From assembly GCA_029561345.1 (NCBI GenBank), contig JAKQJC010000043.1, forward strand, positions 181,958-245,957: a stretch of DNA of 64,000 nt, read 5' to 3'. Shown piece by piece: positions 9,354-9,577 of this stretch. How positions within the stretch are numbered: position 1 is the stretch's first letter; each line of letters starts with the position of its first letter. Both the position numbers and the translations under genes were made by a program. The notes under the pieces were generated by a model. That model was not told where the DNA came from and did no database searches. It was given only the letters and a program-made list of their open reading frames with translations. This DNA is from Chloroflexota bacterium (GTDB lineage: Bacteria > Chloroflexota > Anaerolineae > Anaerolineales > Anaerolineaceae).

Positions 9354-9384
9354 TTGCGGAATTTAACTTTCTGTGCTAAAATCG
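9354..9384 (+). promoter_or_regulatory. candidate his operon promoter (TTGCGG ... TGcTAAAAT, extended -10)
   Basis: Sits 8 nt upstream of the leader-peptide ATG. The spacer of about 19 nt is long, so this is low confidence. Confidence 0.3.
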
Positions 9385-9391
9385 GCCGCAA

Positions 9392-9475
9392 TGAAAACCG
9401 CTCTTTTTTCTTCCTGCCTGCATCACCATCATCATGGTCATAACCGGACACCCTACCGGGCAGGAGTGGTTTAAG
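9392..9475 (+). CDS. hisL: histidine operon leader peptide (MKTALFSSCLHHHHHGHNRTPYRAGVV)
   Basis: A 27-codon ORF with six His codons within seven consecutive positions, lying between the promoter-like element and an intrinsic terminator directly upstream of hisG. Coordinates are uncertain by about 1 nt. Confidence 0.7.
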
Positions 9476-9528
9476 CAGGTCTGACCCCCAAAGTTTTTTC
9501 AGACACAATCGCATTGCAAAACCCCAGG

Positions 9529-9564
9529 CGCTTCCCGGAAGGGAAGCGTTTTATTTTTGTTTGT
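9529..9564 (+). terminator. attenuator terminator of the his leader (CGCUUCCC-GGAA-GGGAAGCG followed by UUUUAUUUUUGUUUG)
   Basis: 8-bp GC-rich stem with a GNRA loop and a long U tract, about 15 nt before the hisG RBS. Confidence 0.7.
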
Positions 9565-9577
9565 CTCAGGAGGTGTG

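Follow-up and report, generated by a model that had tools for sequence, protein, structure and literature searches.

The stretch of DNA analysed here, referred to throughout as the window, comprises 64,000 nucleotides (nt) of a Chloroflexota bacterium of the family Anaerolineaceae (class Anaerolineae; assembly GCA_029561345.1, contig JAKQJC010000043.1, positions 181,958 to 245,957 of the forward strand). At positions 9354-9577 of the window, ahead of hisG, lies a leader that is, with a probability that we place at roughly 0.85, a His-tRNA-sensing, ribosome-mediated transcription attenuator of the hisGDCBHAFIE operon with a four-region design like that of trp. The elements of the leader include a promoter, a short open reading frame (ORF) with a run of His codons, four RNA regions with mutually exclusive pairings, and an intrinsic terminator immediately before hisG (Table 1). 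These elements are conserved among relatives, the three pairings 1:2, 2:3 and 3:4 co-evolve, and the spacing of the elements is compatible with the footprint of a ribosome.

The His-codon leader ORF and its relatives

The leader lies within the intergenic region 9197-9577, between plus-strand hisG and a minus-strand ORF (8453-9196) that has neither an NCBIfam or Pfam match nor an assigned function. Because this upstream neighbour is on the opposite strand, the terminator hairpin is not the end of a preceding gene. A first-pass annotation, made from the sequence alone, had described a 27-codon ORF with six His codons in seven consecutive positions, heading a nine-gene hisGDCBHAFIE operon in a genome that did not look proteobacterial. 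The ORF is confirmed at 9391-9474, all nine genes are recognized by NCBIfam, and hisG homology assigns the genome to Chloroflexota/Anaerolineales. A scan for mini-ORFs found no second His run; the one upstream of hisG is the only one in the 64-kb window. A reading frame beginning at 9392 starts one base too far downstream and is out of frame, and GTG 9373 was rejected as an alternative start because it falls within the conserved -10 region. A Met-leader-like mini-ORF elsewhere in the window (MGLFIVSGGTMMHMMM, 60027-60077, plus strand) was dismissed as a chance occurrence; the minus strand there carries a PspC-domain gene (60020-60229; 69 aa; Pfam E=4.9e-25), to which the mini-ORF is antisense.

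The relatives covered have at least 60% hisG identity. A hisG protein search identified four genomes labelled Anaerolineales or Chloroflexota (60-65% identity), an alignment-driven hisG scan of metagenome contigs identified 80 loci (60-76% identity), and a separate hisG protein homology search returned only close relatives (68-99% identity). The first-pass annotation had suggested a comparison of his leaders from related genomes. Sequence of at least 300 nt ahead of hisG is available for 73 related loci. A His-rich mini-ORF, counted as at least four His codons in a seven-codon window, is present on the plus strand in 60 of them; the corresponding counts are 2/73 for the reverse complement, 0/73 for shuffled sequence and 0/73 inside hisG. 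Three His codons are found in nine further loci of the 73. All three of the genome loci for which upstream sequence is available have a His-run mini-ORF followed by a terminator, a 2.17-Mb contig has the same arrangement, and look-ups of the contigs of hisG homologues added one further leader (L085). In nearly all related loci, a strong terminator lies between the mini-ORF and hisG. The predicted attenuator is conserved in dozens of uncultured Anaerolineae (Chloroflexota).

In 61 aligned relatives, the equivalent ORFs have 20-44 codons (median 25; 27 in the window) and a run of 3-6 His codons (median 4; 6 in the window) at the equivalent place, with a median of about 8 codons ahead of the run (10 in the window). 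The remainder of the peptide is not conserved. The 3' parts of the ORFs encode peptides that end in ...TGQGCFK, ...RAGLL or ...DRSAG before the stop codon, and these endings represent different frames over one conserved nucleotide motif (consensus ACCGGGCAGGnCTGCTTTAAG). The use of different C-terminal frames on the same nucleotides argues that it is the His codons and the RNA, not the encoded peptide, that are under selection. It has to be considered whether the mini-ORF encodes a functional His-rich micropeptide (e.g., one that binds metal), with the hairpin as an unrelated constitutive partial terminator. Metal binding is possible for His-rich peptides and the position of the ORF is conserved, but this explanation is barely credible: no peptide sequence is shared outside the His run, the C-terminal halves are in different frames, and, as expected of an attenuator, the length of the ORF and the position of its stop change together with the RNA pairings.

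L046 (1290-1410) is a near-identical deletion variant of L045 (1010-1230) in which ~80 nt are missing, including the promoter and the first leader codons, and the sequence at the junction passes from ...aaatgtaa directly to CATCATCAT. This variant is either a natural deletion, in which case the operon should be promoterless or super-attenuated, or a product of assembly. At L071:1-304, a tandem repeat of ~200 nt (ttctcattcatcattctccat...) that is rich in CAT triplets and has no in-frame His run stands ahead of hisG. The hisG homologue P0042, on a 1.78-Mb contig, is annotated as 409 aa rather than the usual 333-342 aa, which suggests that the leader region was taken into the ORF by the gene caller.

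Alternative pairings of the leader RNA

The terminator stem (AGGCGCUUCCC-GGAA-GGGAAGCGUUU, followed by TTTTATTTTTGTTT) has a hairpin energy of -17.7 kcal/mol in the window, and the terminator with its T-run stands 18 nt upstream of the hisG Shine-Dalgarno sequence and ATG. The first-pass annotation had correctly recognized the terminator, its GGAA loop and its U-rich tract; the 8-bp stem that it gave is too short, as the stem has 11 pairs. Taken alone, a terminator-like site here is not above chance (1 found in 1.2 kb vs 1.6 expected in shuffles), so its significance rests on conservation. Column-based pairing was counted against shuffles in a MAFFT alignment of 61 leaders (alignment A2). In this alignment, 89% of terminator cells are paired, with 83 double changes (28.5 in shuffles; 0/500), and 11/11 pairs covary. 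RNAalifold on A2 recovers the terminator independently, and recovers only the terminator. Attenuation could alternatively operate on hisG translation by sequestration of the ribosome-binding site, for which there is precedent in another leaderless-rich phylum: the poly-Cys leaderless small ORFs of mycobacteria act on translation in this way (bioRxiv 10.1101/834739). Such a mode is highly improbable here, because the hairpin is a canonical intrinsic terminator (GC-rich stem and U-tract) in nearly all loci, because the hisG Shine-Dalgarno sequence is downstream of the U-tract and unpaired or marginally paired in folds, and because the terminator-to-hisG distance in relatives ranges from 16 to 220 nt.

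The unconstrained fold of the window leader consists of a 1:2 domain (-23.4 kcal/mol) plus the terminator. On the columns of A2, helix 1:2 is 73% paired (30-49% when slid), has 51 double changes vs 25 in shuffles, and has a covariation score of 0.272 vs 0.176 in shuffles (0/500). The small CCGG-N8-CCGG hairpin between the His codons and region 2 is 68% paired in relatives and includes CCGA/TCGG compensations; its role may be to pause RNA polymerase, or it may simply belong to the anti-antiterminator. The spacer between regions 2 and 3 is variable in A2.

The first-pass annotation had also proposed a search for mutually exclusive structures by RNA folding. When the window RNA is folded from 9456 to 9540, with the 3' arm of the terminator withheld, region 2 pairs with region 3 at -22.8 kcal/mol, and this antiterminator occupies 9528-9538, which is nearly all of the terminator 5' arm. 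Under the same treatment, region 2 pairs at least 5 of the 11 nt of the terminator 5' arm in 48 of the 61 leaders. The mean energy of these folds is -19.8 kcal/mol, compared with -15.2 kcal/mol when region 2 is shuffled and -18.6 kcal/mol for the terminator hairpins alone. Two subtypes of leader occur. In subtype (i), region 2 reads ACCGGGCAGGACTGCTTTAAG and the terminator AAGCGCTCCCCGG; in subtype (ii) (L004, L039, L047, L053, L068, L069, L073, L080 and L081), region 2 reads CCTGCCTGACCGGAGAGCAGG, the terminator reads AAGCCCCCGGTCA...CCGGGGGCTT, and the promoter (TTGACG, 17 nt, TACAAT) is without the TG extension. The upstream TGACCGG(A/G)G of subtype (ii) copies the terminator's own 3' arm, and in both subtypes the terminator 3' arm is mimicked by region 2.

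An alignment-free comparison set the duplex energies of regions from the same locus against 2000 permutations across loci (61 leaders; R1 to R4 denote regions 1 to 4). Same-locus duplexes are more stable than permuted ones for R1 x R2 (-13.4 vs -10.7 kcal/mol, z=-7.9), R2 x R3 (-15.5 vs -14.1 kcal/mol, z=-5.0) and R3 x R4 (-21.4 vs -15.5 kcal/mol, z=-13.9). The seven control pairs (His x R3, R1 x R3, R2 x R4, R1 x R4, spacer x R3, His x R2 and spacer x R2) have no same-locus advantage: their z values range from -0.8 to +2.5, with four at an absolute value of at most 1.1 and three worse than permuted (+1.1, +1.8 and +2.5). The co-evolving pairings are exactly the three that the four-region model requires.

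The remaining geometry of the leader is expressed as medians from the aligned leaders. The end of region 1 and the first His codon are 5 nt apart (also 5 nt in the window by alignment column; in the window's own fold the paired segment 9412-9420 adjoins the first His codon at 9421). The distance from the last His codon to region 2 is 20 nt (range 11-25; window, 14 nt), the end of the stop codon falls 3 nt beyond region 2 (window, 2 nt), and the terminator follows the stop codon by 32 nt (51 nt in the window). Given a footprint of ~12-15 nt on each side of the decoding centre, a ribosome waiting at the His codons would cover region 1 and spare region 2, and a ribosome at the stop codon would cover region 2.

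These distances also bear on the possibility that region 2 and the terminator form an antitermination switch run by a protein or a tRNA (T-box, HutP-like or similar), in which the His codons would play an incidental or secondary part. The sequences of region 2 (ACCGGGCAGGACTGCTTTAAG) and of the terminator 5' arm are conserved beyond what pairing alone would strictly demand, yet the three overlapping pairings already account for their slow drift. Only the His run is constant among otherwise divergent ORFs, its distances to regions 1 and 2 fit a ribosome footprint, and no T-box or other family of Rfam 15 was matched in the whole window at the gathering score or in 9200-9700 at E<=10. A switch of this kind is thus very unlikely. 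A Rfam match to Phe_leader (17.8 bits vs a gathering score of 55) is noise, aligned solely on the terminator.

The promoter, the start of translation and the proposed mechanism

The promoter-like element that the first-pass annotation had placed upstream of the ORF (TTGCGG, 17 nt, TGcTAAAAT) is kept in the relatives, where the conserved promoter likewise lies upstream of the mini-ORF and not downstream of the hairpin. Alignment of 60 distinct leaders on the -10 box yields the consensus cTTGC, 17 nt, TnTGnTAnAAT. The T, T and G of the -35 element are present in 56, 56 and 49 of the 60 leaders, the TG of the extended -10 is present in 53-54, and TAnAAT is near-invariant; upstream of the -35 element, no conservation is found in this alignment. 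A generic scan missed the window promoter, whose -35 element matches at only 3/6 positions. The distance from the end of the -10 box to the ATG is 9-10 nt in 53/60 leaders and 8 nt in the window. In relatives, this stretch consists of a GC-rich discriminator followed by CA(A/T)(T/C), and the CA is usually 3-4 nt ahead of the ATG; in the window it is immediately ahead of it. Where a leader has two in-frame ATGs, the first is overlapped by the -10 box. Neither the window nor the relatives have a Shine-Dalgarno sequence, or room for one, between the -10 box and the ATG.

Given a distance of 8-10 nt between the -10 box and the AUG and the absence of a Shine-Dalgarno sequence, the transcript probably begins 0-3 nt before the AUG, with a sensor ORF that is leaderless or nearly so. 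Leaderless genes have a TANNNT signal ~12 bp ahead of the start codon, and such signals have been reported in Chloroflexi (Zheng et al., PMC3160421). The gap in these leaders is 2-4 nt longer than the ~6 nt of strictly leaderless genes, and the sensor ORF is therefore termed near-leaderless rather than leaderless. This excess is also an argument for the same attenuator with a transcript that starts further upstream, in which the ORF would be reached by Shine-Dalgarno-independent internal initiation on a longer 5' untranslated region (UTR). A weak promoter-like site at 9139-9167 could serve such a transcript, but it falls within the divergent upstream ORF. The -35/extended -10 pair, moreover, stands at a fixed distance from the ATG in 53/60 leaders, conservation does not extend beyond position -31 (relative to the 3' end of the -10 box), loci with two in-frame ATGs have the first of them overlapped by the -10 box, and no Shine-Dalgarno-like purine run fits between the -10 box and the ATG. 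A longer 5' UTR is accordingly a credible but somewhat unlikely alternative to the near-leaderless start.

In the mechanism that we infer from the attenuator's layout, transcription would begin at a sigma-70-type promoter with an extended -10 that stops 8 nt short of the leader AUG, and the 27-codon sensor ORF would be translated from the leaderless or near-leaderless 5' end of the transcript. When His-tRNA is plentiful, the ribosome would reach the stop codon (9472-9474) and occupy region 2 (9456-9472); upon its release, region 1 (9395-9420) would re-pair with region 2. With region 2 either masked or paired with region 1, region 3 would be free, the 3:4 terminator would form, and RNA polymerase would halt before hisG. 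When His-tRNA is scarce, the ribosome would stall at codons 11-17 (9421-9441), covering region 1 and ending short of region 2. The free region 2 would then pair with region 3 as it emerges and sequester 9528-9538, so that the terminator would be blocked and the operon transcribed. The start site, the stalling of the ribosome, the order of co-transcriptional folding and the response to histidine are predicted parts of this model.

Several observations weigh against this attenuator. The first-pass annotation had found the antiterminator hard to fold by eye, and the single-sequence evidence for it is indeed weak: in the window alone, it folds no better than with region 2 shuffled (51/300 shuffles fold as well), which makes the antiterminator of the window, taken alone, the weakest link. 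On the fixed columns of A2, the antiterminator is 73% paired vs 70.5% in shuffles and displays conservation only, with no covariation above shuffles; this null result arises because the 3' end of region 2 (TTT(A)) has its partner at variable positions and because the alignment combines both subtypes. At equilibrium, the terminator persists in folds of the full leader whichever of the tried ribosome masks is applied, so that the model has to rely, as is usual, on a co-transcriptional (kinetic) argument. The minimum free energy (MFE) of the whole leader has a z-score of only -1.57. Two related loci, L060 and L077, are without a His leader; their hisG proteins are 61-65% identical and belong to a clade with a different N-terminus (VFPERT/VFPDRT). 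At L077, hisG directly follows another plus-strand ORF, and at L060 a different hairpin (gcgaaggacacg...cgtgtccttcgc) is upstream of hisG. Regulation evidently differs within the group, given these two loci. L011 (1330-1410) and L028 (1270-1400) have only two His codons (YYHH and VHHR) within a full layout of promoter, ORF, region 2 and terminator, and the sensors of these two loci may be weakened or drifting. With respect to the near-leaderless start, no source was found that demonstrates leaderless translation in Anaerolineae. Finally, the support for the attenuator is computational throughout.

Table 1. Positions in the window of the leader elements, the his genes and the operon-end hairpin.
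Feature	Position	Strand	Basis or remark
-35 element TTGCGG	9354-9359	+	Read from sequence; TTG at 17-nt spacing in 49-56/60 leaders
Spacer, 17 nt	9360-9376	+	
Extended -10 TGcTAAAAT	9374-9382	+	Read from sequence; conserved in relatives
Gap CGGCCGCA, 8 nt, -10 box to ATG	9383-9390	+	
Predicted transcription start, C9389-A9390 or A9391 of AUG	9389-9391	+	-10 spacing and conserved CA; 0-2 nt 5' UTR
Leader peptide ORF MKTALFSSCLHHHHHGHNRTPYRAGVV	9391-9474	+	27 codons + TAA; ATG 9391, TAA 9472-9474
Region 1 (anti-antiterminator 5' strand)	9395-9420	+	9395-9401 with 9466-9472; 9412-9420 with 9457-9465; MFE fold
Regulatory His run H11-H15, G16, H17	9421-9441	+	His codons 9421-9435 and 9439-9441
Small hairpin CCGG/CCGG	9444-9459	+	9444-9447 with 9456-9459; between His codons and region 2; -4.6 kcal/mol
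Region 2, conserved motif CCGGGCAGGAGTGGTTT	9456-9472	+	Pairs with region 1 or region 3; leader stop overlaps its 3' end
Spacer hairpin GUCUGA-N14-UCAGAC, 6 bp	9479-9504	+	Window-specific; nests inside predicted antiterminator
Region 3 (antiterminator 3' strand)	9519-9538	+	Overlaps terminator 5' arm and loop; 9519-9523, 9528-9529 and 9531-9538 pair with 9456-9472
Antiterminator pair CCGGG/CCCGG	9456-9460 / 9534-9538		
Antiterminator pair AGG/CUU	9462-9464 / 9531-9533		
Antiterminator pair GU/GC	9466-9467 / 9528-9529		
Antiterminator pair GGUUU/AAACC	9468-9472 / 9519-9523		
Intrinsic terminator (regions 3:4)	9526-9563	+	Stem-loop 9526-9551, T-rich tract to 9563
hisG Shine-Dalgarno GGAGG	9568-9572	+	Read from sequence
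hisG	9578-10582	+	NCBIfam; ATG 9578; 334 aa, long form
hisD	10585-11900	+	NCBIfam
hisC	11912-13006	+	NCBIfam
hisB	13039-13629	+	NCBIfam
hisH	13626-14231	+	NCBIfam
hisA	14231-14959	+	NCBIfam
hisF	14953-15747	+	NCBIfam
hisI	15740-16081	+	NCBIfam
hisE	16075-16362	+	NCBIfam
Terminator-like hairpin and T-run after hisE (operon end)	16392-16426	+	

The his operon and comparison with known attenuators

The nine genes hisG, D, C, B, H, A, F, I and E span 9578-16362 on the plus strand and are tightly packed or overlapping. Elsewhere hisI and hisE are commonly fused as hisIE; here they are two genes with a 7-nt overlap, and hisF and hisI overlap by 8 nt. Directly 3' of the operon is a gene for a 773-aa Kelch-repeat protein (16489-18810, plus strand). 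The GC content of this gene stretch is 0.53-0.55, compared with 0.65-0.67 over the his genes, which may indicate foreign origin.

The four-region model of attenuation is that of the E. coli trp operon. The Anaerolineae leader resembles the trp attenuator in its 1:2 / 2:3 / 3:4 layout, in having the regulatory codons at or in region 1, and in having a stop codon at which the ribosome would rest on region 2; it differs in its amino acid and operon, in the absence of homology, and in a sensor ORF without a Shine-Dalgarno sequence. The enteric his leader encodes a 16-codon peptide with seven consecutive His codons in a Shine-Dalgarno-led ORF, and its RNA has six segments (A-F). Like the enteric his attenuator (hisL, RF00514), the Anaerolineae leader has a His-codon leader ORF before hisG, an intrinsic terminator and mutually exclusive upstream pairings. 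In contrast to it, the Anaerolineae leader belongs to Chloroflexota and has 27 codons, 5+1 His codons, four pairing regions and a probably near-leaderless start, and no homology between the two is detectable in sequence or structure. Rfam His_leader (RF00514) has no match in the whole window at the gathering score, nor in 9200-9700 at E<=10. The first-pass annotation had called the design E. coli/Salmonella-style; the logic is the same, whereas homology to it is lacking and the layout is the four-region trp-like one rather than the six-segment one. The read-out of the enteric his attenuator is ribosome position, and hence His-tRNA charging (summarised in PMC9413887).

Candidate His leader-peptide attenuators are also described in Firmicutes, namely in the B. 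cereus group, Peptostreptococcaceae and Erysipelotrichales (Ashniev et al. 2022, PMC9413887), as are bacillus hisS/hisZ leaders (Naville & Gautheret 2010, PMC2965389). The Firmicutes leaders are similar to those of Anaerolineae in being lineage-specific, in having 3-5 His codons and terminator/antiterminator hairpins, in having been found by comparative genomics, and in lying outside RF00514; they belong to a different phylum and an unrelated sequence family. A parallel to the predicted start of the sensor ORF comes from Actinobacteria. Translation of the C. glutamicum ilvB leader proceeds without a ribosome-binding site (Morbach et al. 2000, cited in PMC4046766), and the mycobacterial Cys leaders are leaderless. 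These actinobacterial leaders have in common with the Anaerolineae one the lack of a Shine-Dalgarno sequence; their sensor ORF is at or near the transcript 5' end and cognate-codon stalling remodels downstream RNA, two features that are predicted for the Anaerolineae leader. They differ in their amino acids (Val/Leu/Trp, and Cys), and the mycobacterial Cys type operates by sequestration of the ribosome-binding site, in contrast to the intrinsic terminator found here.

The leader is a new, lineage-specific case of well-known leader-peptide attenuation, and as such is not surprising in principle. Documented cases of leader-peptide attenuation cluster in Proteobacteria, Actinobacteria and a few Firmicutes (PMC2965389, PMC9413887). 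In the searchable literature, outside which most subscription journals fall, no report of leader-peptide attenuation in Chloroflexi/Anaerolineae was found, which is absence of evidence only. With even odds, this may be the first described member of a phylum-level His attenuator family (Chloroflexota, class Anaerolineae) with a sensor ORF 0-3 nt from the transcript 5' end. If so, the pioneer ribosome would have to enter at the nascent 5' end through leaderless initiation, and both coupling and the attenuation decision would be set by the kinetics of leaderless initiation rather than by Shine-Dalgarno recruitment. The leader offers a compact natural case in which to study the coupling of a near-leaderless ORF to RNA polymerase, and it represents another apparently independent origin of His attenuation. 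For many Anaerolineae metagenome-assembled genomes, it provides a usable his leader annotation (promoter, sensor ORF, four regions and terminator), and it cautions annotators against reading the 80-200 nt ahead of hisG, which are regulatory, as an N-terminal extension. If the same design heads other amino-acid operons, it would constitute a general regulatory style of this large, mostly uncultured lineage.

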